This document shows positions 3,666-43,785 of a DNA stretch of 64,000 bases, piece by piece. Made by a program: the position numbers and the translations under genes. The notes under the pieces are model-generated. The model was not told the DNA's origin, did no database searches, and saw only the letters and a list, made by a program, of their open reading frames with translations. Each line of letters begins with the position of its first letter. Position 1 is the stretch's first letter. This DNA is from an uncultured Candidatus Binatia bacterium (lineage in GTDB: Bacteria > Desulfobacterota > Binatia > UBA9968 > JAJDTQ01), in contig OZ243916.1 of the NCBI GenBank assembly GCA_965213675.1, forward strand, positions 2,272,001 to 2,336,000. Reading direction: 5' to 3'.

Positions 3666-4181
3666 ATAGCGCGGCCTACAAGAATCAACCAGCAGATCCG
3701 GGCTCGCGAGGTCCGCGTCATCGACGCCGACAGCGAACAGCTCGGCGTCATGCCGTTGCACGAGGCCTTGGGCATCGCCGAGCAACGGGAGCTGGACTTG
3801 GTAGAGGTGGCACCGGACGCACAGCCTCCGGTATGTCGCCTGCTGGACTACGGAAAGTTTCGCTACCTGGAGAAGAAGAAGACGCAGGAAGCGAAACGCA
3901 AAGCCACCTTTGTCGCCGTCAAGGAAGTCAAGATGGGCGCCCGGACCAACGTGCACGACCTGGAGTTCAAGGTGCGCAACATCCGGCGCTTCCTCGAAAA
4001 GGGGCAACGGGTCAAGGTGTCGGTCTTCTTCCGTGGCCGTGAGATCACGCACCCGGAGTTGGGCCGGGCGATGCTCAACGGGGTCTTCGACGAGGTTCAG
4101 GACATGGCCAAGCTGGACGTGTCGCCCAAGCTCGAGGGACGCAGCATGGCCATGCTGTTGACGCCGAAGACGAGCGCATAG
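3666..4181 (+). CDS. infC: Translation initiation factor IF-3 (non-canonical ATA start)
   Basis: GGAGGT SD at 3655-3660, then ATA 3666 in frame: [20 protein letters not shown]...; [23 protein letters not shown]. Confidence 0.93.
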
Positions 4182-4219
4182 AGAAGTTACCGGAACCGAA
4201 CGGGACGGGGAAACCAGGG

Positions 4220-4417
4220 ATGCCGAAGATAAAGACGAACAGGGGAGCCGCCAAGCGGTTCAAGATCAGCAAGAGCGGCAAGATCATGCGGCGGCGCGGC
4301 TTCAAGAGCCACATCCTGTCCACCAAGAGCCGCAAGCGGAAACGCCGCCTGAGACAGGCCGCTTCGGTGTCGAGCTACGAAACCACGAGCATGCGGCGCC
4401 TCATTCCGTATCTGTAG
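4220..4417 (+). CDS. rpmI: 50S ribosomal protein L35
   Basis: [28 protein letters not shown]; position after infC. Confidence 0.97.
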
Positions 4418-4545
4418 GAGCGGCTCGCTCCCGTATACGGGCGGGCACCGGCATCCATCGGCATACCATTCACTGATACGAGGCGCGGGCGGGCGACGGT
4501 TGCCCGGATGCGCCTCCGTTGACGTTCGTTCAAGGAGCACACGCG

Positions 4546-5013
4546 ATGCCCAGAGTCAAGGGCGGACCGGCCTCACGCCGGCGCCGCAGAAAGATCATGA
4601 AGCTGGCCAAGGGGTACGTCGGCGGGCGCCGGCGGCTCTACCGCACCGCCAGGGAAACCGTGGAGCGCGGGTTGGCCTATGCCTACCGGGACCGGCGTGT
4701 GCGCAAACGCACGTTCCGGGGCCTGTGGAACATCCGCATCAGCGCCGGCGCGCGGGTCAACGGATTGTCCTACAGCCGTCTGATCCACGGCCTCAAGCTT
4801 GCCGGAGTGACCCTGGACAGGAAAATCCTGGCGGATCTCGCGGCCACCGACGCCCACGTGTTCGACCAACTCGCCCAGCGCGCCAAACATGCCCTCGATC
4901 CGGATCGGGAAGCAGCCGTCGCTTCCGATCAGGAGAACGCTCCCGACGCCCCGGAACCCGACCCTGAGCGGGAGTCCACGGCGGACGCCGGCGGGGAGGC
5001 TCCCGAAGCCTGA
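4546..5013 (+). CDS. rplT: 50S ribosomal protein L20 with acidic C-terminal extension
   Basis: AAGGAG RBS; [34 protein letters not shown]. Confidence 0.96.
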
Positions 5014-5027
5014 GCCCCGGGTCCGTC

Positions 5028-6059
<1,032 letters not shown>

Positions 6060-6150
6060 GAGTGTCGCGCCGTGGCACGAGGACGCGCGGGCTTGTCATT
6101 CGCGCCTCGCGCCTCGCATCGTGCCGGCGCGGGCCCCCGATTCCAAGATC

Positions 6151-8559
6151 ATGAAGCTGACCTACAACTGGCTGATGGAGATGGTGGAGTTGCCTGCGGA
6201 TGCGGCTTCCCTCGGACCTGACGAAGTGGCCGGCCGTCTGACGCAGGCGGGCCTTGAGGTGGAAGCGGTCAGGCCGCTTGCCACCGACCTGGGGGCTGTC
6301 ATCGTCGAGATCAAGCAGGTCGAACCTCACCCCAACGCCGACCGGCTCTTGGTGTGCGAGGTCCATGCCGGCGGCGCGCCGCTTCACGTGGTGTGCGGCG
6401 CGCCCAATGTCCGCCCGGGCATGAAGTCCGCGTTCCTGCGCGCCGGCTCGGTATTGCCGTCGGGCCAGGCCATCGAGCGGCGCGCCATCCGCGGCGTTGC
6501 CTCCGAGGGAATGCTCTGCTCCGAGCGGGAGTTGGGGTTTTCCGACGACCACCAGGGCATCATGGATTTGCCCGCGGATGCGCCCGAGGGTGAGCCGGTG
6601 CGCGCGTACCTGGGGCTGGACGACTGGATGCTGGAGGTGGGCGTGACGCCCAATCGCGGCGACTGCCTGAGCATCCTGGGAATGGCGCGGGAAATCGCCG
6701 CCCTCACCGGCGGCCGGGTCAGGACTCCGGTCATTCCCGATCATCTGCGCGGGCACCCGGCGGAGTTGCCGGTGGCGGTGGAGATCGTCGATCCGGCTCG
6801 GTGTCCGCGCTATTCGGCCCGTCTCATCGAGGGCCTGCGGCCCGCGCCGTCGCCGCCGTGGCTGCGTTTCCGGTTGGAGGCCTGCGGCATCCGTTCCATC
6901 AACCACATCGTCGACGTCACCAACTACGTGATGCTGGAGACCGGCCAGCCGCTCCATGCCTTCGACGCGCGGCAGATCGCCAGCCGGCGGATCGTGGTGC
7001 GCACCGCTGGCCCGGCGCGCACGCTCACGACCCTGGACGGCTCCGAGCGAACGCTCCATCCCGACGATCTGCTCATCTGCGACGGGGACACCCCCGCCGC
7101 CCTGGCCGGTGTCATGGGTGGCGCAGGCTCGGAGGTCACCGAGGAGACCGAGTCGGTGCTGCTGGAAAGCGCCCACTTCGACCCACTGACCATCCGGCGC
7201 ACGGCCAAGCGCATGGGCATGCACACCGAGGCGTCCCATCGCTTCGAGCGCGGCGTGGACCCGGAAGGGACGCGGCGCGCCATGGACCGGGCGGTGGCGC
7301 TGTGGGAAGCCATGGGCGAGGCGCGGGTGGCGCCGGGGTACGCCGACGTGTATCCAGGGGCGCGGGCGCCGGCGGTGATCACGCTGCGTCATGCCAGCGT
7401 CGGGCGCGCCCTGGGGATGGAGCTGGCGCCGGAGCGCATCCGCGCCATCCTCGAGTCTCTCGGCATCAAGATCCACAGCGCCACGGCCGGCGCCCTGGAG
7501 GTGTCCGCACCCTCCTTTCGCTTCGACCTGACGCGGGAAGCCGACCTCGTGGAGGAACTGGCGCGCATCCACGGGTACGACAAGATGCCCGCAACGCTGC
7601 CCGCGGTGCGCATGGACGCGGGAGCGGACGACCCGTTGCTGCGCCTGATGCGCAAGACCCGAACGCTGCTCACCACCCAGGGGCTGAGCGAGGTGGTGAC
7701 CCTGCCCTTCTGCGCGCCGCGGATGAACGAAACGTTCACCGGCCTCTGGGACGGCGACGGCAGACCCGTGCGCATTGCCAATCCGTTGCGCCAGGAAACC
7801 GACGAGATGCGCCTCAGCCTGCTGCCAGGGCTGATCGGCAACCTGCGCGCCCATGCCGAACGCCGGAGCCAGAGCTCCATGATCTTCGAATTGAGCAAGG
7901 TATTCTCCCGCGGGCGTGACGGCGGCTACGCCGAGCGTTTGAACGTGGCCGGGCTCATACGCGGCCACCGGCCGCGACGCGGGCTCAGGGCGGAAAGCCC
8001 GGAGTTCGCGTTCGCCGACGCGAAGGGAATCGTCGAGGACCTGATCGAAGGCACCGGTGGCGCGGGTATTCGCTGGGGGGCCGCGGAACCACCGGCGAGC
8101 CTGCACCCGGAACGGTTCGCCAAGGTCATTGCGGAAGACATCCGCCTGGGTCACGTTGGGGAGCTAAGTCCGCGAGTTCGCGAGGAATTGGACCTGCCTC
8201 CCTGCTTCCTCTTCGAACTTGACTTCGCCCCGATGGTTCACTATGCTCGTGCGGATTTTCGCGTGAGGCCCATCCCTCGGTTTCCTTCGGTGGAGCGCGA
8301 CCTCGCCATCGTCGTGACTCGGAACTTTCCAAGTCAGACCGTGATCGACTGGGTCCACGGGCTGGCTCAGAAGCTCATCGAACGCGTGGAGGTGTTCGAC
8401 GAATACACGGGCGCGCCCATCGAAGAGGGCAGGAAGAGCTTGGCATACAAGGTCTTCTACCGGTCCGCAGAGAGAACCCTGACGGACGAGGAGGTCAACG
8501 GCGTGCACGAGGACCTCACCCGGACGCTGTGTTCCGAATTCGACGCCACGTTGCGCTGA
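6151..8559 (+). CDS. pheT: Phenylalanyl-tRNA synthetase beta subunit
   Basis: MKLTYNWL start; HPNADRL, VCGAPNV, TPNRGDCLS, RFERGVD, FDX-ACB C-terminus. Confidence 0.97.
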   Translation: MKLTYNWLMEMVELPADAASLGPDEVAGRLTQAGLEVEAVRPLATDLGAVIVEIKQVEPHPNADRLLVCEVHAGGAPLHVVCGAPNVRPGMKSAFLRAGSVLPSGQAIERRAIRGVASEGMLCSERELGFSDDHQGIMDLPADAPEGEPVRAYLGLDDWMLEVGVTPNRGDCLSILGMAREIAALTGGRVRTPVIPDHLRGHPAELPVAVEIVDPARCPRYSARLIEGLRPAPSPPWLRFRLEACGIRSINHIVDVTNYVMLETGQPLHAFDARQIASRRIVVRTAGPARTLTTLDGSERTLHPDDLLICDGDTPAALAGVMGGAGSEVTEETESVLLESAHFDPLTIRRTAKRMGMHTEASHRFERGVDPEGTRRAMDRAVALWEAMGEARVAPGYADVYPGARAPAVITLRHASVGRALGMELAPERIRAILESLGIKIHSATAGALEVSAPSFRFDLTREADLVEELARIHGYDKMPATLPAVRMDAGADDPLLRLMRKTRTLLTTQGLSEVVTLPFCAPRMNETFTGLWDGDGRPVRIANPLRQETDEMRLSLLPGLIGNLRAHAERRSQSSMIFELSKVFSRGRDGGYAERLNVAGLIRGHRPRRGLRAESPEFAFADAKGIVEDLIEGTGGAGIRWGAAEPPASLHPERFAKVIAEDIRLGHVGELSPRVREELDLPPCFLFELDFAPMVHYARADFRVRPIPRFPSVERDLAIVVTRNFPSQTVIDWVHGLAQKLIERVEVFDEYTGAPIEEGRKSLAYKVFYRSAERTLTDEEVNGVHEDLTRTLCSEFDATLR

Positions 8560-8593
8560 ACTGCTGACCCGCTCCGGCCGGCAGAGGATAGGG

Positions 8594-8911
8594 ATGACCA
8601 AGGCGGATATCATCAACCGGATTTACGAGAAGGTGGGTTTCTCCAAGAAGGAGGCCACCGATGTCGTCGAGGCCACGTTCGAAGTCATCAAGTCCCGGCT
8701 CGAGAAAGGGGACAAGGTCAAGATCTCCGGCTTCGGGAACTTCGTCATCCACGGCAAACAGCCGCGCAAGGGCCGCAACCCCCAGACCGGCGAGGAGATC
8801 ACCATCGCGGGCCGCCGGGTGCTCACCTTCAAACCCAGTCAGACCCTGAAGAAGAACATGAACACCGTTGCCGGCGACGACCCAGACCCGGACGACTCCA
8901 CCTGTTCGTGA
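8594..8911 (+). CDS. ihfA: Integration host factor alpha subunit
   Basis: MTKADI, VKISGFGNF, GRNPQTGEEI; canonical position after pheT. Confidence 0.93.
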   Translation: MTKADIINRIYEKVGFSKKEATDVVEATFEVIKSRLEKGDKVKISGFGNFVIHGKQPRKGRNPQTGEEITIAGRRVLTFKPSQTLKKNMNTVAGDDPDPDDSTCS

Positions 8912-9496: not shown

Positions 9497-10168
9497 ATGG
9501 CCTTGAGTTCCAACAACCGTAGCGTCACCGCACTGGAGGGCGCCAGGGAGCGGATGGTACAGACCCAACTGCTTGACCGCGGCGTGAAGGACCCGCGCGT
9601 GATCCACGCCATGCGCAAGGTGCCGCGCCACTTGTTTGTGGAGCCGGCACTGGTGAACCGGGCCTACGACGACGACCCCTTGCCCATCGGCGCCAAACAG
9701 ACCATCTCGCAGCCCTATATCGTCGGGTACATGCTGCAGGCATTGAGTCTCAAGGGCACCGAGCGCGTCCTGGAGATCGGCACGGGATCAGCGTACCAGA
9801 CCGCCCTGCTGGCGGAGTTGTGCGCCAACGTGTTCTCCGTGGAGAAGCTGCGCGGCCTGGCAGTGCAGGGTCGCGCCGTGCTCGACGAGCTACGGTACTA
9901 CAACGTGGCCATCCACGTGGGCGACGGCACCCTCGGATGGTCCGAGCACGCCCCCTACGATGCCATCGTGGTAGCCGCGGGCGCACCCCGTGTGCCGGAG
10001 CCACTGGCCCAGCAACTCGCGTCCAGCGGCCGGCTCATTATTCCCATCGGCAGCCAAGCCTCCCAGGTCCTGAGGCTCGCAAGCCGCACGCCCAGCGGGC
10101 TCGACGAGAAGAGCCTTGGCGAGTGTCGCTTCGTCAAGCTTCTCGGGAAGTACGGCTGGCCTGGTTAG
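9497..10168 (+). CDS. pcm: Protein-L-isoaspartate O-methyltransferase
   Basis: VPRHLFV, QTISQPY, VLEIGTGSAY, GDGTLGW, APYDAI; start uncertain (9488/9497). Confidence 0.93.
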   Translation: MALSSNNRSVTALEGARERMVQTQLLDRGVKDPRVIHAMRKVPRHLFVEPALVNRAYDDDPLPIGAKQTISQPYIVGYMLQALSLKGTERVLEIGTGSAYQTALLAELCANVFSVEKLRGLAVQGRAVLDELRYYNVAIHVGDGTLGWSEHAPYDAIVVAAGAPRVPEPLAQQLASSGRLIIPIGSQASQVLRLASRTPSGLDEKSLGECRFVKLLGKYGWPG

Positions 10169-10195
10169 CGCGACGTGTTTGAAGTTCGTGTGCGA

Positions 10196-11116
10196 ATGTT
10201 CGTAGACGACTCCGCTGGTTCCTGCCGCGCTCGTATCCGGGGCGCCGGCGCACTTCTTTGCCTCTACGCCATCCTGGCGGTCACGGGTTGCGCCTATTTC
10301 GACAAACCGGCCGGCGACCGCGGCGCTTACGGCAACCGTGCCGGGAACCTGCACGGTGCGGGGCGGACGCCACGCACCGGCGTCTTCCATGTCGTGAAAA
10401 AGGGCGAGAATCTCTACCGCATCGGCAAGGCCTACGGCGTGGACCACAAGACGCTGGCGCGCATCAACCACGTCACGGACACGCGCGACATCCAGATCGG
10501 GAGGCGGCTGTTCATCCCCGGCGCCCACCGGCTGCTGCCGGTGAAGATCATTACGCCCATCAAGGAGGCCGCTCCCGCCAGGGCCGCGGCGGCTCGGACG
10601 GCCGCCCCCTCCCAACCGGCGAGACCGGGCACGGCTCAGGCCATGGCCGTTCCGGCCAAGCCGTCTCACGCCCCGGCGGTTCGCCCGAAGGCCCAGCGAC
10701 CCAAGGCCGCCCCCACCACAGCGCGCCAACCGTCGAGGGCGTCCAGCCGGCAAGGCTTCGCGTGGCCCGTCAAGGGCAGGGTCACCGGCAAGTTCGATTC
10801 ACGACCCGACAGTCTCAACGACGGCATCAACATCGCCGCGCCACCGGGAACGCCGGTGCGAGCGACGCTGGCGGGACGAGTGATCTACAGCGACCAGTTG
10901 CGCGGCTACGGCAACCTGATCATCGTGCGTCACCCACGCGGCTACGCGTCGGTCTACGCTCACAACCGGAAAAACCTCGTGCGACAGGGCCAGAAGGTGA
11001 ACCGGCGGCAGGTCATCGCCGAGGTGGGCGCCACCGGCCGGGCCGCCACGTCCTACCTCCACTTCGAGATCCGCAGGAACAACGTGGCGCGGGACCCGCT
11101 TCCCTATTTGCCGTGA
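10196..11116 (+). CDS. LysM/M23 lipoprotein (NlpD-like)
   Basis: Lipobox-like AVTGC, LysM (HVVKKGENLYRI), Pro/Ala linker, M23 (WPVKG, GYGNLIIVRH, YAHN, LHFEIR); follows pcm. Confidence 0.9.
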   Translation: MFVDDSAGSCRARIRGAGALLCLYAILAVTGCAYFDKPAGDRGAYGNRAGNLHGAGRTPRTGVFHVVKKGENLYRIGKAYGVDHKTLARINHVTDTRDIQIGRRLFIPGAHRLLPVKIITPIKEAAPARAAAARTAAPSQPARPGTAQAMAVPAKPSHAPAVRPKAQRPKAAPTTARQPSRASSRQGFAWPVKGRVTGKFDSRPDSLNDGINIAAPPGTPVRATLAGRVIYSDQLRGYGNLIIVRHPRGYASVYAHNRKNLVRQGQKVNRRQVIAEVGATGRAATSYLHFEIRRNNVARDPLPYLP

Positions 11117-11135
11117 CTGTGCTAGCCAAACCCGC

Positions 11136-11675
11136 ATGACCGCCCAGGAGAGCATCGCCGGGATCCGCGCCGCCATTCGCGACATTCATGACTTCCCCAA
11201 ACCCGGTATCGTCTTCAAGGACATCACTCCGCTGCTGAGCGACGGCGCCCTGTTTCGCAAGACCATCGACCTCTTTGCCGAACGCTATGAAGCCGCGCCC
11301 GTGGACACCATCGTGGGCGTGGAGTCCCGCGGTTTCATCATCGGCGCGGCGCTGGCCTACCGGCTGGGCAAGGGACTGTGCGTCATCCGCAAGCCCGGCA
11401 AGCTCCCTTACGACACGTTGCAGACCACCTACGAGCTGGAATACGGCACCGACACCCTGGAGGTGCACAGGGACGCGCTGGCGCCCGGCGCGCGCGCGCT
11501 GCTGGTGGACGACCTCGTCGCCACCGGGGGCACCGCCGTGGCCGCCACCGCCCTTGTGGCGCAACTCGGCGCCACGGTCTTCGAGCACGCGTGCATCATC
11601 GAACTGAGCTTCCTGAACCCACGCGAAAAGCTGGACCAGGAGCTGTTCTCGCTCGTCCGCTACGACTCGGACTAG
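11136..11675 (+). CDS. apt: Adenine phosphoribosyltransferase
   Basis: DFPKPGIVFKDITPLL, ESRGF, RKPGKLP, YELEYG, VDDLVATGGT. Confidence 0.97.
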   Translation: MTAQESIAGIRAAIRDIHDFPKPGIVFKDITPLLSDGALFRKTIDLFAERYEAAPVDTIVGVESRGFIIGAALAYRLGKGLCVIRKPGKLPYDTLQTTYELEYGTDTLEVHRDALAPGARALLVDDLVATGGTAVAATALVAQLGATVFEHACIIELSFLNPREKLDQELFSLVRYDSD

Positions 11676-11736
11676 CGCTCAAGACACCGCACATCCCCAC
11701 GCAACCCACCGTGATCCCCGCTTCCCGTTTCCTTGA

Positions 11737-13734
<1,998 letters not shown>

Positions 13735-33581: not shown

Positions 33582-33772
33582 GGGCGCGTCTGAAACCCTC
33601 CCATCATTCAACCGCGGCCATTCAAGCCTACGCCGCACCGGCGAAAACCCAACCTCTCATAAAAGAGTGGCGGCCATGGGCATGAAGCCATACAATAGAA
33701 GCCGGATCTCATGGAGGTAGAAGGAAAAGATTTCCGGAAGCCGCAGGAGTCGGCATCGAAAGCGCACAGAAC

Positions 33773-36091
33773 ATGACTTCCAAGTCGAAGCCCGGTTTTT
33801 TCGATCTGATAGTGGATCGATACTTCTGGACGATAGCCGTCACTTTCCTGTTGACCGCCGTGCTCGCCACGGGAGTACAGCACCTCATTACCGTCAATGT
33901 AGGCATCCGAAATCACTTCGATGACAATGACCCGCATTTGATCAACCTCGACGATTTCGAAACGACCTACGCAGTGTCGGACAGCGTCCTCGTCATTGTC
34001 GCCCCGCCGAACGACACCGTTTTCACGCGCAAAGCACTCGTTGCGATTGAGCAACTGACGGACGTGTTGTGGCAAACGCCTTATTCTGTCCGTGTCGATT
34101 CGATAACCAATTACCTGCACACCGAGGGAATCGAGGACACCCTGATTGTCGAGCAACTGGTCGACGACGCGGCTTCGCTGGGCGACGTCAACCTCGCCCG
34201 CATTCGAGACATCGCCCTCACCGCACAGGAAACGGCCGGCCGTTTCGTCTCTCGCGACGGTCGTGTGGCCGGCCTGATCGTGAGCCTGGCCATCCCCGCT
34301 GAACAACGCAAACAGCGCAAAATCGAAGTGGTCGACGGTCTCTACGGTCTGGTCAACAAACAGCGCGCGGCCAACCCCGACATCGAATATCACATCTATG
34401 GTGAACTGTTGTTGAATCGGGCGGTTCGCGACGCGCTGACAGACGATATGTCCTTTTTGGCGCCAATCGCGCTTGCGATGATGGTTCTGGTCGCGATGCT
34501 GTTGTTGCGTTCGGTTTGGAGCGTTTGCGGGATTTTTGCGATGATAATTGCGGTGATGGCATCGAGTTTCGGCCTAACCGGCTGGTTCGGTTTGAAATTC
34601 TATGCGGAAAGCGGCGCCGCGGTATTCGTTCTGATGGCGATTGCCATCGCACACTCCGTCCACCTGATCGAAGGAGTGACCGTTGGAATGCTTCGTGGAA
34701 TGGAACGTAAAGCCGCCGTTGTTCACTCCCTGACAATCAATGCCCATCCGATCTTCCTTACTTCGCTCACCACCATGATCGGTTTTCTGAGCCTGAATTT
34801 TTCGGAAATGCCGCCGTTTCGAGTGATGGGTAATATCGTTGCGTTCGGCGCCATGTGCGCCTTCGTCTACGCGGTCACGCTTTTGCCCGCATTGTTGGCG
34901 ATGATGCCCATCCGGGCACCCGCCGAAACGAGACACGGAACGACACCTTTCAAGCGTTTGGGAGATTTCGTCGTTTCCAAAAGCATTTTCTTGCTATGGA
35001 CTTTCGTCATCCTCGTTCTGGTGAGCGCATATGGCATCTCGCGAATCAGCCTGAATGACAACAACAACGCCAAGCTCCTTAACGAAAGCTACGACTTGCG
35101 CCGATCGGGTGATTTCATCAACGAGCACTTTGCCGGGCTGGATTCCTTTGAGTATTCACTGAATTCCGGGCGCGCGGGGGGAATCACCGACATTGAGTAC
35201 CTGCGTCGGGTGGATTCGTTCGCCAACTGGCTTCGCGAACAGCCTGAAGTTTCTCACGTCACCTCGATTGCCGATATCATGAAGCGGATTAATCAAAATC
35301 TTCATAATGACGCAAAAGGCACCTATGCCCTCCCGGCAAACTCCGACCTTGCGGCGCAATACCTGCTTTTATACCAGTTCTCCCTACCGGTCGGCCGCGA
35401 CATAGACAATCTCATCAACTTTGAGCGGTCGGCGACCCGGATGACCGTCGTGATCGGGGGAATGTCGGTCAAAAAGCAAATCGAGCTGGACAATCGCGCT
35501 TCTGCCTGGCTGGGACACAATGCTCCGCAAATGCGGACCGGAGCGACCGGCGTCGCCATTGTGGGCGCTTACTCGGTGATGAGAAACATCGTGAACATGT
35601 TACTCGGCACCTTCATCGCGATCTCGACCGTGTCGCTGCTGTTGATCCTTGCATTCAAAAGCCTTCGCTTGGGGCTTCTAAGCCTGATACCCAATTTCGT
35701 GCCGGCAATCATATCCTTGGGGGCATGGGGTTACGCTGTGGGAACCGTGAATATTGCGGCGTCAATCGTTACCGCGATAGCGTTTGCCATCGTTGTGGAC
35801 GATACCATCCATCTCCTGTCGAAATACCTGACTTCACGCGCAGAGGGCAAATCACCTTCCGAAGCCATCCCGCCGACTTTCGAGCTCGTGGGACAACCGC
35901 TGCTGAGCACCACGTTGATTTTTGCGGTGGCATTTTTCGTCTTTGGCGCATCGGGGCTAGTGACCAATCAGACGCTCGGTTTGCTGGTCGGAATGACGGT
36001 CATCATTGCGCTCGTTGCGGACCTCTTTTTGTTACCGCCGCTTCTGCTGGCCCTCGACAGGACGAAACACCGGCAAACGCTCGACGACTAG
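33773..36091 (+). CDS. Second MMPL/RND-family transporter (AT-richer codon usage)
   Basis: Duplicated TM architecture; LTSLTTMIGFLSL, SLIPNFVP, AIVVDDTIH. Confidence 0.9.
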   Translation: MTSKSKPGFFDLIVDRYFWTIAVTFLLTAVLATGVQHLITVNVGIRNHFDDNDPHLINLDDFETTYAVSDSVLVIVAPPNDTVFTRKALVAIEQLTDVLWQTPYSVRVDSITNYLHTEGIEDTLIVEQLVDDAASLGDVNLARIRDIALTAQETAGRFVSRDGRVAGLIVSLAIPAEQRKQRKIEVVDGLYGLVNKQRAANPDIEYHIYGELLLNRAVRDALTDDMSFLAPIALAMMVLVAMLLLRSVWSVCGIFAMIIAVMASSFGLTGWFGLKFYAESGAAVFVLMAIAIAHSVHLIEGVTVGMLRGMERKAAVVHSLTINAHPIFLTSLTTMIGFLSLNFSEMPPFRVMGNIVAFGAMCAFVYAVTLLPALLAMMPIRAPAETRHGTTPFKRLGDFVVSKSIFLLWTFVILVLVSAYGISRISLNDNNNAKLLNESYDLRRSGDFINEHFAGLDSFEYSLNSGRAGGITDIEYLRRVDSFANWLREQPEVSHVTSIADIMKRINQNLHNDAKGTYALPANSDLAAQYLLLYQFSLPVGRDIDNLINFERSATRMTVVIGGMSVKKQIELDNRASAWLGHNAPQMRTGATGVAIVGAYSVMRNIVNMLLGTFIAISTVSLLLILAFKSLRLGLLSLIPNFVPAIISLGAWGYAVGTVNIAASIVTAIAFAIVVDDTIHLLSKYLTSRAEGKSPSEAIPPTFELVGQPLLSTTLIFAVAFFVFGASGLVTNQTLGLLVGMTVIIALVADLFLLPPLLLALDRTKHRQTLDD

Positions 36092-36259
36092 CTTTCGGGA
36101 CGTCTCGTGATGGCCGAAACCATGAGGTCCTGGACGCGCCGATGACCCCGGTTCCGCCGGCGTCTCGCGAGCAAACTTCCGCCCGTCCGCGTCCACGTTC
36201 GCGCCATGCCGTCATTCTCGACAGCGTCCGTATCGCCGGTCACGAGCGCAGGAGCACCT

Positions 36260-38290
36260 TCAGGCCGAAATGTCGCGCAACTGGCTTGCGATGCGCAGCC
36301 GAAGTTTCTTCGTAACCGACAATGCCGGGAATGGGTTGATTTTCAGTTTATAGTCTTTGGGCGGCGGCGCAAAGTCGAAATGGTGCGCTATAACCAACAC
36401 GGTAACCGTCGCCTGCAAATGCATCCATGCCCATCCCGCGCACGAGTGGGTATCCAAGCCGTTCGGAGCGTATCCAGGACCTTGATGCTCATTGCGCGGC
36501 GGCAGGTAACGGTCTATATCGAAGTCGTAGGGGTCTGCGAAGCAATCACTCATGTAGTGGGCCGCGGTTTGCACAATGTACAACCGTTCCCGGAGCGGCA
36601 GTGAATAATTTTCCACCACGCAAGAATTTGCGACATCGCGAAGATGTGTGCTGATAATCGGATACATTCGCAAGCATTCCATGAGAAAGCGCCTGGTAAC
36701 GTCATATTTGTCCGGCGTAAACGCTTCTTTATTCGGATCGCCGCCATCGAACAGCGCGTTTGCCTCTTCACGAATTCTCGCCGCAATATCCGGGTGCCTG
36801 GCCAACTCATAAAGTGCGAAACCCAACATGTCCCCTAGATAAATACTTTGAAACACGGGCGTTACCGCCATCATGAACATCAGGTTTTGCTCCGGGATAA
36901 ACTGCGGATCGCTGGTGTGCAAAGAAATCAGCTCGTCCGCCAGCTCCCGGGCAGCGCCTGCACGGTGAATGGGAATGTGGTTCTGTTCGATGCGCCGCAG
37001 GAGTTTCTCGTAAAGCTGGAAGCGATACTTCATGCCGGGAGTGCGCGTCAGGAATTTCGGGAGAAAATCCGCAACGTAGCAAAGGATTGCTTTTTCATTC
37101 CATTTGACCAGGTCTTCAAATACATCTTGCGAATTCGTACTAATAAGAACCTGAGACATTTGAAAATTGGTCATCGACCGGGTATCGCGCTGTACTTCCA
37201 GTGTCGAGCCGGCCTGCCACTTTTGAGTTATCATGAATTGGCGGCTCAGTCGGAACATGTCATCCAGCCGCTCGTGGAAACTGGCCTTCGAGTAAATTTT
37301 CCCCATCAGCTTGCGCAATCGAAAATGATCAGCTCCGTCCGTCGACGGCAGTAAATTGTTTGCGCCGCAAACCGTCTCCATCTTGCGAAAAAAATTGCCG
37401 GAAGTCAAAAACCTTCGGGAATTTCGACGCATCCAATGATTGATGTCAGGTCCTGCCAAAAATGTTCGCGGTCTTTGAAACGGCGGACAGATTTGAAAGA
37501 CGGGACCATATCGGGCGGCCAGATTCCCGAACAGGGCTGGCAGGTTGCCGTCCCACAAATGCCGATTTGCGAACAAGCTCCTTAGGGGAATCTTCGGAAT
37601 TGGTTTTGTGAGGGGTGAGTGTTGCAATACAGGCGTAATGGCGACCTGCTTGACAGCAGTGGAGATGACCCGGTTGATCAGTTCCGTTTTACAAACCTGG
37701 TCAATTCGCTTTTTCTCGTCCTCGCCCAGCTCGAAAATGAATTTGATGATATCGCACGCGCTCAAAAGACCGATTATCAGGGAATCCCTCGGGTCTGGAA
37801 TGATATCCGTGAAAATTACCTTCGCGATTCGCGATTTGATGTACTTTCCAACGGTCTCGCTTTGAGGATATCGTTCCAATTCCGCATGCCAGGCGCAGTG
37901 GTTCGTTGTATAAAACTCACCATCATGGCGCGTCAGAATTTCGGAGTTGATCAACTGCTTCAATGTAGCATCGATGATGTCTTCCGAATGAACTGCAAGC
38001 CGCTCAATCCAGTATCGCGGTTCTTCCAGATTGGGATGAGATGCGAACTCTTCCAGACATAAATCCAGTGCCGGGTCGCCTGTTTTGGTCGAGTCCAGGA
38101 GAAAGAGCGATTCTTCGTCGGTATCAATGCGTGATTTCAGGGAGAGATCGGCCAGAACTGCGCCGATGGTGGCGCAGTTCAACGTCCAGCCCTCCACTTG
38201 GTGGAAATAACCGTTCTGCTCGTTGAGAATCGTCAGGATGAATTCTTGCGGGATATTCAACGATTGCTTCGTTATCATGTTACACGCCAT
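36260..38290 (-). CDS. GPP34(GOLPH3)-domain plus cytochrome P450 fusion
   Basis: N-terminal LNIPQEFILTIL..GAVLADLSL..RI..TGDPALD (GPP34-like); P450 motifs ECLRMYP, FDIDRY, GLDTHSCAG; start 38290 or 38278. Confidence 0.85.
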   Translation of the reverse strand: MACNMITKQSLNIPQEFILTILNEQNGYFHQVEGWTLNCATIGAVLADLSLKSRIDTDEESLFLLDSTKTGDPALDLCLEEFASHPNLEEPRYWIERLAVHSEDIIDATLKQLINSEILTRHDGEFYTTNHCAWHAELERYPQSETVGKYIKSRIAKVIFTDIIPDPRDSLIIGLLSACDIIKFIFELGEDEKKRIDQVCKTELINRVISTAVKQVAITPVLQHSPLTKPIPKIPLRSLFANRHLWDGNLPALFGNLAARYGPVFQICPPFQRPRTFLAGPDINHWMRRNSRRFLTSGNFFRKMETVCGANNLLPSTDGADHFRLRKLMGKIYSKASFHERLDDMFRLSRQFMITQKWQAGSTLEVQRDTRSMTNFQMSQVLISTNSQDVFEDLVKWNEKAILCYVADFLPKFLTRTPGMKYRFQLYEKLLRRIEQNHIPIHRAGAARELADELISLHTSDPQFIPEQNLMFMMAVTPVFQSIYLGDMLGFALYELARHPDIAARIREEANALFDGGDPNKEAFTPDKYDVTRRFLMECLRMYPIISTHLRDVANSCVVENYSLPLRERLYIVQTAAHYMSDCFADPYDFDIDRYLPPRNEHQGPGYAPNGLDTHSCAGWAWMHLQATVTVLVIAHHFDFAPPPKDYKLKINPFPALSVTKKLRLRIASQLRDISA

Positions 38291-38358
38291 TCCTCGTGAT
38301 TTGATTCTTTCTCGTGATGCCGATGCCTGCGGCTTCCGGTCCCCTTTTTTCCATCCCT

Positions 38359-41300
38359 CTACGAGATCTTCTTTGCCGTTCCGGTTCCGCCGTCCGGCGT
38401 CATGTCCACAGCCGCCACTCTTCCAGCCATGACGCGTTGACTTCTCGCCGGTAATATCATGTTCATTCGTTGGTTCCGGCGACGCTGCTCGTAGAGGGCA
38501 AGCGCGTGCAGGGGGAAATACTGGCGGTAGAGCACGTAATCCAGGAGGGCCGTTCGAAAAAAAACGCCGGCCATGTCCTGCTTGGGCCAAGTCCCGTCTG
38601 CTTCCTGCGTATCAAGCAGGAAGCCGGCACCCCGGGAAATCGCGGCCCAGTCTGTTGTGCCCGCCTCGAGGAGCGCTATCAGCGCCCACGCGGTCTGTAT
38701 GACCTGGCTTTCCTGATGCGGGACGTAGCGACCGGTCAGGCAGCCGCTGTGGTGTTCGCCCCATCCCCCGTCTGGCTGCTGGCGCTCCAGCAGCCAGCGG
38801 CAAGACGCGCGCAGCGCCGGATCGCTTGGACCGGCCCGGTCCGAAACAAGGCCCCTGATGCCGAAAAGGGTGCCGTAGATGTACTGTACCCCCCATACGC
38901 CGCGCCAACTGCCGTCAGCCATCTGGTGCCGTCGCAACCACAAGACGCCCCGGGCGATGGAGTCGGCAACCACCGACCTGTCGCCAATTTCGGGAAATCG
39001 ATCCCGGCAGACAGCCAGCGCCGCGATACAAGACGCGGTACACTCGACAAAAGAACGCTCGGTCATCGATTCGCCGAACATCTCTGCAGGATTCAAACGC
39101 TCCAGATCAATTGCCGAGCGCCTGGCCTCATAACTGCCGAAGCCCCCGTCGGGGTTCTGGCTTCGCAACATAAAGCCAATCGCTTCGCTGAGGACGGACG
39201 GGTCCGTGTCGTCTCCGTGGGCGGCGACGAGTCCGAGCACCGCCTCCGCCGTGCAGTCACTCACCGGCCAGCCATGCCACCCGCCGGCGAAGCACCAGCC
39301 GCCTTTGGGGTCAGCGCGGTAGGCTTCACGAAACCGCTCAAAGCTGGTCTTGATCTGTTCGCCGAGCAGAAAATCGGCGCCGCGCCGGAGCGCATCCCGA
39401 ACACGGTCCGTCTCAGGCATGGTAGCCAGAGCCTGCAGCGCGAACCCGGTATCCCACGAAGCGCTTCTTGCTCCGCTGACCCGCAAGCCGTCGTCTTCGT
39501 CTTCCCATATCCAGGAACCCATTTTCGATAGCGCCCGTCGGCAATCGGTATCGTCCGGATCGTGCAGCCACAGCGCCAGAATGTTGAGAATGCCGCTGAC
39601 CGGAGAGATGCTCGTATGGCCGGTGGTCTGCAGTTCCCATCTGATCTGCCCGAGAATTGTATCCATGCACCGTGTGCGCAGGTGTTTGCTGTGGAACCGC
39701 TCGACCAGCCGTGCAAATCCATATCCGAGCCTGAGCCAGACGGACGGCCTTGCAAAAAGATCGGCGTCCCGAAGCCGGTTCCTGGCGGCGAGAAAGTCGG
39801 CCCTGGCAAAACCTTGCGGATAAAGCTCTTCCCGCAACGCGGCGATAACTGGTGTGACGGGCGCCTGGAACCGGCGGGCATAAATCGACGCCATCGCCAT
39901 ATAGATGAGCCGTGTATGGCAGTACCAGTTGGAAGGATGCAGCGGTATCTTCCGCGGCAGGCTCCACAATTCCGGCAGAACAGCGTTCACGCCGTTCCAA
40001 TCATAAAGATTAAGGAGCGCCAGCCATAATTTTCCCCAGCTCGGAATGCCGAGAATCCCCTCGGCCTGAATGAACCGCCGGGCCGGCGCGATCAGGGGGT
40101 CATCCGGCAATACACCGAGCAGCCGCGCCGCGACATAAACGAGGGCGGTGACGAACAGATGGGGCGACGAATGCTCGTGCAGGCCCCATGAACCGTCCTG
40201 GAGACGAGTCCTCTCAAACGAGCGCAGCACCCGGCGCCGCTTTCCCGGATCGAGCGGCTGGCCGATGATGTGGTGGAGCAGTACGTATTGCGCCGTGAGC
40301 ATGGGACACCAGACCATCTCGCCTTCCCAGTCGCCGTCCTCTCTCTGCAGTTGCACGAGGCATTGGGCGGCGCTGTCCAGCGCCGGGCCGGCATCGGGCG
40401 AATCGACCGCTCCCGCGCGGGCGGGCCGCTCCGATTCGGTTTTCGAAGGGATGGAATAGGGGAATGCCCGTCGTAGGTGCTCTCGCGTATTCGCGCTTTC
40501 CTCCCTTCCTTCCCTGGTCGCCGCCCTCAACTGGCGGATGCCGAGCAGCAACCACCAAAGGCGAGCAGCCAACGCGCGAAAGTTCACCAACATCCGACGC
40601 CATGAAAGCCTGCGGATGGAGAAGGTTATCTCCCGGCTCATTGCCCGCGCGACAGTTTCGCAAAAGGAGAAAACCGTCATTGACATGGACAAGTCTTCGC
40701 AGGCAAGTATCCGCATGGTCCGGTCCCGATACCCCGAATTCGCTCGCCAGCCTTGGTAAACGGCCTTTCTGAGCATAGCCGATTCGGTGCGGTAATCGCC
40801 CAACACCTCATAAAGCCCCATGGCAAGGAACTCGGGAACACGGGTCGCCTGGAACCGCTCTGCGGTGAATTGCTGGAAGTCCTCGCTTTCGGAGAGCGCC
40901 AGCGCATCGCCGAAGCCGAGAGTCATGCCGACTGCCGTCATGGGATGATAGTGTCCGGCGGCATCGCCGATAAGCACCCGGCGCGGGTTCCCGTACGTGA
41001 CACGCGGTCTCAATTGGTTGGGGGCGGCATGGAATCGCCTGACGTCCAGCGCTTCGACGAAGGCCGGCCCGAGATATCCCGGAAGCAGCTTGCCATAGGA
41101 TTCAGACAAGAAACTTATCCAGTCCTTGGAATGCCAGCAGTCCAATGGGACATCCACGTTGACCCGGACGGAGCCGTTCGCAAGTCCGTAAATGAAAATT
41201 GGACCCGGCCCGCCCAGAACCACATGTCCGTATCCTTCAAACGGCAGGTCGGCGTCGTGTAACGTCACCCCGAGCATCCGCGAACAGAGCATCGGGTCCA

Positions 41301-41799
41301 TGGAATACCCCAAGGATCTGCGCACGATCGAAGCGCGGCCGTCGGCGCCGATAATTCGGTCGACATTTATGGCGCAGTCCGAGCGGTCTTTCGAGAAGGT
41401 GATCCGTTCGTCTTCAACGACATTGACCCGCGCGTGGGAAATGAAATCGACATTGGCCTCGTTCTCTATGACCTCGCGGAGGCTTGAAACGAGCAGCGCG
41501 TGGTCGCATACCAGACCCCGTGAACCGTCTGGATAAGGAAGCAGGATCGGGTCGGAGTCGTCGTCGGGCAGCACCACGAAGCCGACGCCCGACTTGCTGC
41601 CGGAAAGCGTGTCGACATCAATCCCGATGTCACGCAACAAATTCACTGCCGGCGGATGCAACCATTCGCCTGCAAGGCGTTTAGACGCTTTCGGATTCGC
41701 TTCGAGCAGGGCCACCTTAACGCCCTTGCGCGCAAGGACAATTGCGCACACGCTTCCCACCGGTCCCGCGCCGACAATGGCGGTATCATACTTCGGCAC
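38359..41799 (-). CDS. Squalene epoxidase-oxidosqualene cyclase fusion
   Basis: GTG 41799 after GAGGAGG. N-half: GAGPVG, RLAGEWLHP, ADG, GDAAGHYHPMTAVGMT. C-half: QxxDGxW repeats, WYCHTR, GWPVSDCTAE, GVWG.QYIYGT, GVFF..ALLDY..YRQYFP. Confidence 0.92.
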   Translation of the reverse strand: MPKYDTAIVGAGPVGSVCAIVLARKGVKVALLEANPKASKRLAGEWLHPPAVNLLRDIGIDVDTLSGSKSGVGFVVLPDDDSDPILLPYPDGSRGLVCDHALLVSSLREVIENEANVDFISHARVNVVEDERITFSKDRSDCAINVDRIIGADGRASIVRRSLGYSMDPMLCSRMLGVTLHDADLPFEGYGHVVLGGPGPIFIYGLANGSVRVNVDVPLDCWHSKDWISFLSESYGKLLPGYLGPAFVEALDVRRFHAAPNQLRPRVTYGNPRRVLIGDAAGHYHPMTAVGMTLGFGDALALSESEDFQQFTAERFQATRVPEFLAMGLYEVLGDYRTESAMLRKAVYQGWRANSGYRDRTMRILACEDLSMSMTVFSFCETVARAMSREITFSIRRLSWRRMLVNFRALAARLWWLLLGIRQLRAATREGREESANTREHLRRAFPYSIPSKTESERPARAGAVDSPDAGPALDSAAQCLVQLQREDGDWEGEMVWCPMLTAQYVLLHHIIGQPLDPGKRRRVLRSFERTRLQDGSWGLHEHSSPHLFVTALVYVAARLLGVLPDDPLIAPARRFIQAEGILGIPSWGKLWLALLNLYDWNGVNAVLPELWSLPRKIPLHPSNWYCHTRLIYMAMASIYARRFQAPVTPVIAALREELYPQGFARADFLAARNRLRDADLFARPSVWLRLGYGFARLVERFHSKHLRTRCMDTILGQIRWELQTTGHTSISPVSGILNILALWLHDPDDTDCRRALSKMGSWIWEDEDDGLRVSGARSASWDTGFALQALATMPETDRVRDALRRGADFLLGEQIKTSFERFREAYRADPKGGWCFAGGWHGWPVSDCTAEAVLGLVAAHGDDTDPSVLSEAIGFMLRSQNPDGGFGSYEARRSAIDLERLNPAEMFGESMTERSFVECTASCIAALAVCRDRFPEIGDRSVVADSIARGVLWLRRHQMADGSWRGVWGVQYIYGTLFGIRGLVSDRAGPSDPALRASCRWLLERQQPDGGWGEHHSGCLTGRYVPHQESQVIQTAWALIALLEAGTTDWAAISRGAGFLLDTQEADGTWPKQDMAGVFFRTALLDYVLYRQYFPLHALALYEQRRRNQRMNMILPARSQRVMAGRVAAVDMTPDGGTGTAKKIS

Positions 41800-42103
41800 C
41801 GAGTCAGCCCTCCTCAAAGGGCGCTGGGTATAGCGCGGCGGCGGTTGTGGAGGGCAGGTCTTCCAGGTTCGCCACTGGGGTAGGCATGACGAGCGCCTCC
41901 TGCACCACGTTCGTGGCGAGGCCGGTGAAGGTCAGAGTCGGGTCACTTCCCGCACCGTGTTTGCGAGCGAATCATCTTGTCTTTCAAGGGACGAGTTGTA
42001 TTTCTTTGTTTTCAGCCAATTGCGGGCGGCAGGACAAACCTTACACGGCCAAGTTTCAAACCCGCCAGTGTCCAATCGCGCCGAGACGTGTCTCCAACCC
42101 CCC

Positions 42104-42742
42104 CTACGCCGCGAACGACGCCTGTGTTTCCTTCTCGAAGGCCAGTAGCTTCTGGACGCTGGGGCGGGTCTGCATGCGCGCGAAATGCGCGCGCACGTTG
42201 GGATAGGGCTCCAGGTCGATGTCGAACTGGGTGCTGCGGCGTACGCACCAGAAGAAATGCGCGTCCGGCGCGGTGAAGTGATCGAAGAAGTACTCGCGCC
42301 CGTCCAGCATGGACTCGGCGATTCCGTTGGTCTCGGCCAGGAACTCGGCGGCGATGCGGGACACGCTCTCCACGCTGTCCGCCGCGTCGCACACCTTGGC
42401 CGGCGAGTTGATGCGGCTCAGATAAGGGTGGATGCCCGATGCGCACCACGACATGATCGAGATCGCCCTGACCTCATCCCAAGGATCCGACGGCAGCAGC
42501 CTGGCCTCCGGGAAGCGCCGCGCGATCCACACCTGAATGGCCACGTTCTCCGTCAGGGTTTTCCCGTCCACCATCAGAAGCGGCACCTTGTGCTTGGGAT
42601 TGAGCTTCATGTACTCCTCGGTGCGGTTCTGCCCCGCCCGGAAGTTCAACGCCTTGACTTCGAAGTCCGCCCCCGCCTCGGTCAACGTGATGTAGGGCGC
42701 CATCGCGCAGGTGATGGGCGCGTAATACAACTGGATGCTCAT
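42104..42742 (-). CDS. Glutathione S-transferase family protein
   Basis: LYYAP, LNPKHKVP, LTENVAI, FTAPD, RPSVQ; GGAGGT RBS. Confidence 0.92.
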   Translation of the reverse strand: MSIQLYYAPITCAMAPYITLTEAGADFEVKALNFRAGQNRTEEYMKLNPKHKVPLLMVDGKTLTENVAIQVWIARRFPEARLLPSDPWDEVRAISIMSWCASGIHPYLSRINSPAKVCDAADSVESVSRIAAEFLAETNGIAESMLDGREYFFDHFTAPDAHFFWCVRRSTQFDIDLEPYPNVRAHFARMQTRPSVQKLLAFEKETQASFAA

Positions 42743-42779
42743 GGGTACCTCCGTGTGGTTGGCGACGAGGGTAAGTGCG

Positions 42780-42866
42780 TGGTGCCGGAGGGGGGACTCG
42801 AACCCCCACAGGGTTGCCCCTACTGGATTTTGAGTCCAGCGCGTCTACCAATTCCACCACTCCGGC
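42780..42866 (-). tRNA. tRNA-Leu(CAA)
   Basis: GCCGGAG/CTCCGGC acceptor stem, CTGGA-CT-CAA-AA-TCCAG anticodon arm, long variable arm, GGTTCGAGTCC, CCA. Confidence 0.97.
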
Positions 42867-43040
42867 ACGGAGTGAACCTGACCAGGAGCTTGCGCCGCAG
42901 GACTTCACGGCTGCAAATCCGCTCTCATCCGTCCCTTCGGCCGCTCGATCTCGTCAAACATGACCTGATATTCTCCTCGATCGGCCGAAGGGACGGCGAT
43001 AGCGAATTTTCGCCTTCGCCAATTACTGCGGAGCAGGCTC

Positions 43041-43205
43041 CTGGTGTCGTGTCCCACGTAAATCTTGACAAGGATGCACAGGATTTTTCGTTGCCGGCAA
43101 GGCGCGATGACGAGCCATGGCTGTTACCAAGCGAGGAAGAGCAACGCAGCCGACGACGAAAAAGACCCGCAGATTTGCCAACATTTACGCGGGACACGAC
43201 ACTAG
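43041..43205. mobile_element. MITE-like element (165 bp, about 23-bp terminal inverted repeats)
   Basis: CTGGTGTCGTGTCCCACGTAAAT ... ATTTACGCGGGACACGACACTAG; homologous to 48641-48806. Confidence 0.75.
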
Positions 43206-43233
43206 CTTATGGCGGAAGTGACGTCAAGGTGCG

Positions 43234-43497
43234 TCACGCCTCGGCAAGTCCCGCCAATGGTATCGCCTGCTCCACCAACATGACGGGGATGTCCTCGCGG
43301 ACGGCGTAGAGGTAGCGGCCGTCCGCGCGAACGAGACCGCCGTCGATGGGTTCGGTCACCCTGTCGCCGGCGCGGTTGCGCAGTTGCCCGCCTTCGATCT
43401 TCCGATTGACGGTAGCGACGAGCGCCTCGTCCGCCAGCGAAACCGCCTCGTGGGTTTCGGGACATGCCAGGATGTTGAGCAATTTCTCATCAATCAC
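43234..43497 (-). CDS. Trm112-like (YcaR) protein
   Basis: MIDEKLLNILACPET, LYAVREDIPVML. Confidence 0.88.
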   Translation of the reverse strand: MIDEKLLNILACPETHEAVSLADEALVATVNRKIEGGQLRNRAGDRVTEPIDGGLVRADGRYLYAVREDIPVMLVEQAIPLAGLAEA

Positions 43498-43785
43498 GCC
43501 TGCCTCCAGTCACGCCCGGTTGGACGCTCAATTAATATTTCTCGCCGGCCCGCGGGTGTCAAACAGATCGCCGGCGCCCGCTGCCCCCGCCTGCCTGGAT
43601 TCCCGCTTCCGCGGGAATGACACATCCGTGGGACCGATTTCGTCCCCGCCCATGTCGCCCGAAAGCCGACATGGACGATTCCCCCTTTCGCGGCAACGAC
43701 GGTTCGGCCCGTGGACGCGCGCGCCGTCCACGCGTTTGATGCGACGGGGCCCCTTGGCTATGTTGCCGTGTGGAGGTGGCCAACC

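Follow-up and report, generated by a model that had tools for sequence, protein, structure and literature searches.

Can three genes on a short piece of foreign DNA give a bacterium the ability to make, modify and export a sterol? This question is raised by a 64,000-nt stretch of the genome of an uncultured Candidatus Binatia bacterium (contig OZ243916.1, positions 2,272,001 to 2,336,000; hereafter the window), which contains a low-GC island with genes for a squalene epoxidase-oxidosqualene cyclase fusion, a GPP34-cytochrome P450 fusion (GPP34-P450) and a permease of the RND/MMPL kind (hereafter RND). The initial annotation had read this island as a compact sterol system. We found that its domains, its layout, its foreign composition, the entry enzyme and the squalene supply all held, but tailoring by the P450, membrane targeting and export are suggested only by the gene neighbourhood. 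The island was horizontally acquired and the cassette is demonstrably mobile. A mobile three-gene sterol cassette is, as an explanation of the whole, somewhat more probable than otherwise.

The fusion enzyme provides the firmest part of the answer. Its squalene epoxidase (about residues 1-400) is followed by a linker and an oxidosqualene cyclase (about residues 480-1112). All five modules named in the initial annotation (SE, cyclase, GPP34, p450 and MMPL) scored above their Pfam cut-offs. Those of the fusion were SE (PF08491; 78.6 bits, cut-off 20.1), FAD_binding_3 (75.3 bits), SQHop_cyclase_N (177.5 bits) and SQHop_cyclase_C (187.8 bits). The protein passed the squalene/oxidosqualene cyclase model TIGR01787 (507.4 bits, cut-off 322.7); it scored 733.8 bits with the narrower osq_cycl model, below the cut-off of 851, and 267 bits with the hopene cyclase model, below the cut-off of 431.1. 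Among solved structures, human lanosterol synthase 1W6K was matched by the cyclase half (E 4e-135) and human squalene monooxygenase (SQLE) 6C6N by the epoxidase half (E 8e-28).

We aligned the window protein with the 80 best of its 281 genome relatives. The FAD motif GAGPVG, at residues 16-21, is present in 67 of the 81 fusions, and most of the others have close variants. The cyclase has the motif VSDCTAE, and the residues D455, C456, C533, H232 and Y503 (human numbering) are conserved with respect to 1W6K and invariant in 81/81 fusions. We take D455 of the DCTAE motif to be the catalytic acid of the human enzyme, C456 and C533 its partners, and H232 and Y503 the deprotonating residues. The fused open reading frame (ORF) is uninterrupted in 79 of 80 related loci. 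In one locus, L059, a single in-frame TAG occupies a Gln position of the fusion (11948-11950); here and below, L-numbers designate loci from other genomes, from metagenomes or from the own genome, G-numbers genomes, and X-numbers sequencing runs.

Among species-representative genomes, the search picked up 281 stretches with such a relative. The best 80 of them are 62-94% identical to the window protein and belong, by their record names, to Alpha- and Gammaproteobacteria, Nitrospirales, Binatia, Thermodesulfobacteriota, Bryobacterales, Chloroflexota, Acidimicrobiaceae and Rhodothermales. Among protein clusters, the best 120 are without exception 1044-1184 aa long and have both domain sets. Rarity and novelty had thus been overstated, since the fusion is so widespread and since both fused squalene monooxygenase/oxidosqualene cyclase (SMO/OSC) proteins and GPP34-P450 proteins have already been published.

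Which protosterol would the fusion make? The human positions 381, 449 and 453 are A, H and V in 81/81 fusions. For all the bacteria that they tested, Wei 2016 (PMC4919349) found lanosterol associated with V453 and cycloartenol with I453, and by this rule a lanosterol-type product is predicted. However, the combination A381/H449 fits neither the lanosterol nor the cycloartenol pattern of the same paper, so the product could be another protosterol. With this reservation, a lanosterol-type protosterol is the expected product.

The substrate could be made by the bacterium itself. The initial annotation had noted that no squalene synthase lies within the window, which is correct, and had suggested a source elsewhere in the genome or in a host. 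The squalene genes are indeed elsewhere in the genome: a search for hpnCDE found them on the same contig (C1:3153149-3156287), about 840 kb from the island. HpnC scored 269.4 bits (cut-off 250.45), HpnD 314.5 (278.6) and HpnE 399.8 (283.05). The gene ispH comes next, and dxs is nearby. In the proposed first step, own squalene from HpnC/D/E would be epoxidised by the N-terminal flavoprotein, and the resulting 2,3-oxidosqualene would be cyclised to a lanosterol-type protosterol by the C-terminal domain. That the fused enzyme makes such a protosterol from own squalene is well supported by these comparisons and very probable.

The surroundings of hpnCDE (L104, C1:3151988-3164935) contain some other genes. 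A gene for a periplasmic binding protein of the PhnD family is divergent from hpnC, and the order continues as hpnC-hpnD-hpnE-ispH. After ispH there are genes for a 417-aa protein without a family, a LolA-like protein, an RND paralogue and an MpaB/Lcp-like oxygenase, and then dxs. The paralogue has 541 aa, is 50% identical to residues 272-770 of the island RND and is apparently short at its N-terminus. BstB also belongs to the PhnD family (Zhai 2024, PMC10942540). NCBIfam models detected no BstB/BstC-like partners among the proteins near hpnCDE.

The sterol in this genome is not expected to be demethylated. The genome has a single cyclase, which is an oxidosqualene cyclase, and therefore no squalene-hopene cyclase; none was found in a search for one. 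ERG24 was not found in the own genome by tblastn or by Pfam search, nor were SdmA/B orthologues, for which the best matches were partial and 28-30% identical, nor the C-terminal domain of sterol methyltransferases (Sterol_MT_C). CYP51 was also not found there: the two other P450s of the genome match CYP184A1 and 3dbg best. It is from the failure to find CYP51, ERG24, SdmA/B and the methyltransferase that we expect no demethylation. Because the genome was rated 97.7% complete, the absence of these genes is likely, although not proven. In typical relatives, for example L025 and L037, the fusion is immediately preceded by SdmB-like and SdmA-like genes, ERG24 and a true CYP51; the L025 CYP51 aligned to 6mcw with E 1.7e-105 (356.8 bits).

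The island itself has the layout that had been described for it (Table 1). The three long ORFs are present, and two of them form a co-directional pair on the minus strand, the epoxidase-cyclase fusion first and GPP34-P450 68-80 nt later. The RND gene runs towards this pair, and 168 nt separate its stop codon from that of GPP34-P450. The ORF of GPP34-P450 stays open to 38590; we placed its start at 38278 because the representative of a 100%-identical database cluster has 672 aa. The shift towards A/T-ending codons was also confirmed. GC content at third codon positions (GC3) is 0.68 in RND, 0.58 in GPP34-P450 and 0.72 in the fusion, compared with 0.80-0.90 in the listed flanking genes. Total GC is 0.49-0.58 at 33.5-38.5 kb of the window, compared with 0.64-0.70 in the flanks. 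The ORF list has no further long ORF in the island, none of its three genes has a Pfam domain of an integrase or transposase, and no convincing direct or inverted repeats were seen at its ends.

Table 1. Features of the island and their positions in the window.
Feature	Position	Strand	Basis or remark
Three-gene island, mobile cassette	33635..41860	.	bounded by the stretch common to other genomes and by low GC/GC3
5' leader of the RND gene, first repeat copy	33654..33772	+	inverted repeats I1, I2; leader alignment
RND/MMPL permease of the MMPL/HAE3 kind, 772 aa	33773..36091	+	Pfam, ORF
GPP34-cytochrome P450 fusion	36260..38290	-	676 aa from 38290, or 672 aa from 38278
5' leader of GPP34-P450, second copy	38291..38452	-	overlaps the end of the fusion gene
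Squalene epoxidase-oxidosqualene cyclase fusion, 1152 aa	38359..41817	-	Pfam, NCBIfam, PDB matches

Compared by blastn, positions 9958-18219 of L004 match positions 41860-33635 of the window with 94.2% identity over 8262 bp, and L005 matches the island at 91.2% and 88.4%. The 10-kb flanks of L004 and L005 had no blastn match to the window flanks. The 16S sequences of the window genome and the L004 genome are only 84% identical; across 40 fusion-bearing genomes searched, 37 had a 16S match, and none of these was more than 84% identical. In run X5, the match of one contig begins at 33635 and that of another ends at 41860, and both contigs continue unlike the window. Near-identical DNA is thus found at different places in two distant bacteria, which indicates recent horizontal transfer. 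Past the RND end of the L004 island, at a distance of about 1 kb (L004 19158-19940), there is a fragment of a DDE transposase, which covers positions 188-433 of the 435 in the Pfam profile DDE_Tnp_1_4; neither the window nor L005 showed one.

The cassette is typical of sponge-associated bacteria. The sponge-metagenome runs X8 and X12 have contigs about 90-95% like the island, in X12 also like the flanks, and several related records have sponges in their names. In run X1, flank contigs without differences show that the organism is present there. In one contig of that run (depth 13.2), position 33586 is followed, after 16 letters of other sequence, by 42068; these letters resemble the reverse complement of 42047-42062. 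The joint would fall precisely in the gap between the 3' ends of the host MMPL and GST genes and may represent an island-free site. We take this only as a hint, since the likeness at which the joint was called is 88% and a related strain may be its source.

It might be objected that the island is an artefact of assembly or binning, or a decaying relic without function in this bacterium. The genome bin was rated 8.03% contaminated, run X1 covers the island with higher-depth variant contigs from other organisms, and broken copies exist in relatives: apart from the TAG in the L059 fusion, the GPP34-P450 copies of G008 (C1:2429958-2432773) and G027 (C1:568576-570561) have stops or are split. However, the contig around the island is 3.97 Mb long, none of the three ORFs is broken, the catalytic residues are invariant, and only one of the 80 related fusions is interrupted. 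We consider an artefact or a relic extremely improbable.

Do the three genes belong together? The initial annotation had allowed that they might never co-occur in related genomes, and this is not the case. The trio lies within about 14 kb in 16 of 80 related loci, from several higher taxa and in several gene orders and orientations. A full-length GPP34-P450 is present in 48/50 fusion-bearing genomes; in an even sample of 401 Alphaproteobacteria it is present in two, both of which carry the fusion. The nearest GPP34-P450 is at most 15 kb from the fusion in 16/24 chromosome-scale fusion-bearing genomes, and two of these near copies are interrupted by stops. The Nitrospira locus L037 has RND and GPP34-P450 bracketing a cluster of SdmB-like and SdmA-like genes, ERG24, CYP51 and the fusion.

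The pairing with RND depends on the relationship to the window protein. For GPP34-P450 genes at least 57% identical to that of the window, RND is within 6 kb in 12/13 genome loci, and in 3/3 metagenome loci of this subclade it adjoins GPP34-P450 at 80-92 bp. RND is within 8 kb for 19/29 copies that are at least 40% identical, compared with 1/13 among more distant copies. The identities of GPP34-P450 and RND also co-vary (Spearman rho 0.95, n = 14). The tie of GPP34-P450 to lanosterol synthesis and to RND is therefore strong mainly in the subclade of the window.

The domains of GPP34-P450 are a GPP34 domain at about residues 1-215 (PF05719, 81.7 bits, positions 1-198 of 201) and a P450 domain at about residues 230-676 (PF00067, 78.4 bits), and both were found in 118 of the 120 best database relatives. 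The heme ligand Cys617, the ExxR residues E538/R541, H615 and G611 are invariant in 41 homologues. An AlphaFold2 model made from these homologues had a pLDDT of 88 and a pTM of 0.81. Foldseek matched its P450 part to P450 structures with a probability of 1.00; it resembles P450 BM3, CYP3A4 and the CYP51 of Methylococcus (6mcw), the last having the highest target TM-score, 0.83, among the matches listed. By sequence, the solved relatives are distant (about E 1e-13), and the best CYP51 match reached 51-54 bits. Judged by these scores, GPP34-P450 is not a CYP51.

What the GPP34 domain does is a separate question. Its profile matched human GOLPH3 (3kn1) at E 1.4e-13 and Vps74 at 3e-11; a PDB search with the domain alone gave only E 0.2 to Vps74. 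A published proposal for this family is that it binds phosphatidylinositol 4-phosphate (PtdIns4P) and controls phagocytosis (Nguyen 2025, PMC11706023). GPP34-P450 would then be a host-directed effector that binds PtdIns4P on sponge phagosomes and blocks digestion, and its sterol neighbours would simply share a symbiosis island. These profile matches and the reported restriction of the family to sponge symbionts agree with such a role. The pocket residues do not. In GOLPH3 the PtdIns4P pocket consists of W81, R90, R171 and R174 (Wood 2009, PMC2806290), and these align to V32, I42, E103 and I106; identity in this alignment is low, and it may be off by a few residues. Of 42 sequences, 40 have I, A or V where GOLPH3 has R90, and 36 have E or D where it has R171; none of the 42 has a K or R as close as 3 residues to the R90 position. 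GOLPH3 residues 159-168, just before R171/R174, have no counterpart in the GPP34 profile. The hydrophobic or acidic residues that the great majority of these sequences have at the pocket positions argue, within the limits of a low-identity alignment, against simple inheritance of PtdIns4P binding. The effector role as a whole seems very unlikely to us.

A prediction of a complex between the GPP34 domain and RND gave scores of 0.00 and 0.00. The own genome also has a GPP34-only gene (C1:220018-220710, L105 4018-4710) encoding 230 aa (Pfam 149.8 bits), which has a host-like GC3 of 0.84 and adjoins a UbiD-family gene.

RND scored 107 bits with Pfam MMPL (cut-off 20.5) and 27.5 with Sterol-sensing (cut-off 22.3); the Patched SSD model gave 22.2, below its cut-off of 23, and NF052374 gave 29.7 against a cut-off of 1100. 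Its PDB matches were weak (MmpL5 4e-7, HpnN 1e-4).

Several results weigh against a sterol cassette in which all three genes cooperate. For RND, the NCBIfam model HAE3 scored 169.4, below its cut-off, the HpnN model TIGR03480 91.9 against a cut-off of 751.85, and the BstA model 17.8 against 1400. For the P450, the island encodes no redox partner. The acid-alcohol pair of the P450 I-helix (AGxD/ET-T) serves oxygen activation. In an alignment to 7f3w, this pair falls on I483/Y484; the Thr is missing in all 41 homologues and has a nearly invariant Tyr in its place, the segment reading QSIYLGD, ASMYLGD or AGHYLGS. GPP34-P450 may therefore not be an ordinary monooxygenase; from its conserved residues, it is predicted to be a heme-thiolate enzyme with unusual oxygen chemistry. 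For the linkage, GPP34-P450 is at least 140 kb from the fusion in 8/24 chromosome-scale genomes, and co-occurrence at the genome level is confounded by habitat, as both genes are traits of sponge symbionts. We also surveyed metagenomes, taking the best 80 of 163 GPP34-P450 relatives with loci centred on this gene (L110-L189). RND was near GPP34-P450 in 13 of these 80 loci (7 of the 33 whose flanks reach 5 kb or more on each side) and the fusion in three (2/33).

The commonest neighbour of GPP34-P450 in these metagenome loci was a KshA-type Rieske oxygenase (38/80; 25/33 with long flanks), often only 100-400 bp away. All seven of the neighbour ORFs that were scanned had the C-terminal domain of 3-ketosteroid-9alpha-hydroxylase (KshA_C) and a Rieske domain. 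KshA_C Rieske oxygenases were also seen near GPP34-P450, in many cases right next to it, in L085, L088, L094, L084, L090, L097 and L100. In the most general terms, GPP34-P450 is thus found in the company of steroid-type genes.

These neighbours suggest a different explanation. GPP34-P450 and RND, elsewhere with a KshA-type Rieske oxygenase, could be a separate module that merely travels beside the lanosterol-synthesis gene and that serves to modify, detoxify or degrade host steroids or other lipids obtained from the sponge. The fusion is rare beside GPP34-P450 in the metagenome loci, as seen above, and the GPP34-P450/RND pair is far from it in those eight chromosome-scale genomes. In the alphaproteobacterial locus L014, the pair (3937-8723) has GC3 values of 0.42 and 0.51, whereas the adjacent fusion (9977-13405) has 0.83, like its flanks; this difference suggests that pair and fusion were acquired separately there. 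On the other hand, the trio moves as one unit of 8.26 kb with 94% identity between distant hosts, in two-thirds of the chromosome-scale genomes GPP34-P450 is close to the fusion, and the trio is kept together in several different gene orders. In addition, no KshA_C domain was found in the own genome. We regard a separate module as fairly unlikely.

We thus return to the three-gene sterol cassette and its later steps. In the second step, GPP34-P450, as a heme-thiolate enzyme with a non-canonical I-helix, would act on or handle the sterol, and its GPP34 domain would be a lipid- or membrane-facing adaptor and not a PtdIns4P reader. Neighbourhood and conservation point to this step, to which we give about an even chance. 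In the third step, RND would pass the sterol or an oxidised product outwards from the inner membrane, into the envelope or out of the cell; this step is suggested by the gene neighbourhood and could equally well prove right or wrong. A wider and more tentative idea is that sponge symbionts have a steroid-handling system of their own, with GPP34-P450 as its signature enzyme and not as a phosphoinositide-binding effector; GPP34 would have been re-purposed as a sterol or membrane adaptor, and the oxidised sterol would go to the envelope or to the sponge. We consider this idea rather doubtful.

Expression of the cassette may involve a shared regulatory site. A leader of about 120-150 nt precedes both the RND and the GPP34-P450 gene. 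It is conserved in three close islands (the window, L004 and L005; six leaders aligned) and has invariant blocks up to the start codon. The repeated leader may be this site. A blastn-short search did not detect it before RND or GPP34-P450 genes of less related loci. We also considered a structured RNA, and rejected it: no compensatory changes were seen in 19 predicted pairs. Rfam matched no family except a tRNA outside the island. Scans gave 2 promoter-like sites, where shuffled sequence had 3.7 on average, and 11 terminator-like sites, where it had 9.5; neither kind was enriched.

Upstream of the island there is a host cluster with genes for DUF1302 and DUF1329 proteins, a BNR/YCF48-like gene and a second MMPL gene. 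The last has a host-like composition and ends at 33581, so the description of the island RND as an extra MMPL gene was right. Downstream there is a GST gene and then tRNA-Leu(CAA) at 42780-42866. The summed contig depth at 42726-43627 was very high in all four runs compared (up to 7614 in run X1, about 4200-4500 in X8 and X12). This segment covers tRNA-Leu and a neighbouring region without a Pfam or Rfam match, and is presumably a widely shared sequence.

If the wider idea is true, GPP34-P450 and RND would make an oxidised sterol from bacterial lanosterol or, in other places where KshA-type oxygenases join in, from other steroids. Bacterial oxysterol-like lipids would then be a currency of symbiosis, and the 8.2-kb cassette a plug-in that could give any squalene-making bacterium the ability to make an oxidised sterol in a single transfer. 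If the linkage reflects function, a gene family proposed to serve the evasion of phagocytosis would belong to steroid metabolism instead, and a very small transferable gene set would suffice for sterol synthesis and trafficking. Bacterial sterols in sponges bear on the reading of sterane biomarkers and on the survival of symbionts inside a bacteria-eating host.

How does the cassette compare with known systems? In a partial literature search, with supplements outside it, we found no report that links GPP34-P450, sterol genes and RND. The proximity of GPP34-P450 to the fusion, the pairing of its subclade with RND, its KshA-type neighbour and the non-basic residues at its PtdIns4P-pocket positions were likewise not found in print in that search. 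Fused SMO/OSC homologs are named in the methods of Brown 2023 (PMC10070321), where their N-termini were trimmed for a tree; these likewise have SMO N-terminal and OSC C-terminal in one polypeptide. Here, the fusion proved uniform (A, H and V at the three product-linked positions throughout, and nearly always intact) and lies within a mobile cassette. Kelly 2022 (PMC9531527) described ERG24-CYP51-LSS clusters (CSGs) in 115 of 537 metagenome-assembled genomes (MAGs) from Ircinia. Those clusters share with our fusion the lanosterol-synthase clade and the occurrence in sponge-associated MAGs of many phyla. The cluster genes listed in the available text are ERG24, CYP51 and LSS, whereas our cassette lacks ERG24, CYP51 and SdmA/B and has GPP34-P450 and RND instead.

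The GPP34-P450 of the island has the same architecture and belongs to the same family as GPP34_L, the combination of GPP34 and P450 that was reported as exclusive to sponge symbionts (Nguyen 2025, PMC11706023). The main text of that paper contains none of the terms sterol, steroid, squalene, terpen-, RND or MMPL. Our analysis instead connects the gene with sterol synthesis, RND and KshA-type oxygenases and shows no conservation of the PtdIns4P residues. What the protein has in common with CYP51 is a P450 fold within one broad group (6mcw). The CYP51 of M. capsulatus is fused to a ferredoxin; here the fused partner is GPP34, and the I-helix motif differs.

For sterol transport, Methylococcus capsulatus has the RND protein BstA together with BstB and BstC (Zhai 2024, PMC10942540). 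The island RND is not an orthologue of BstA or HpnN, and the island has no BstB/BstC gene. Like both of them, it is encoded beside sterol-synthesis genes and, by analogy, would be expected to move a polycyclic triterpenoid from the inner membrane. Each part of the cassette is known from sponge-associated bacteria, and their linkage as one travelling unit appears to be undescribed. What is new here is this linkage, the evidence for transfer and the doubt on the PtdIns4P reading.

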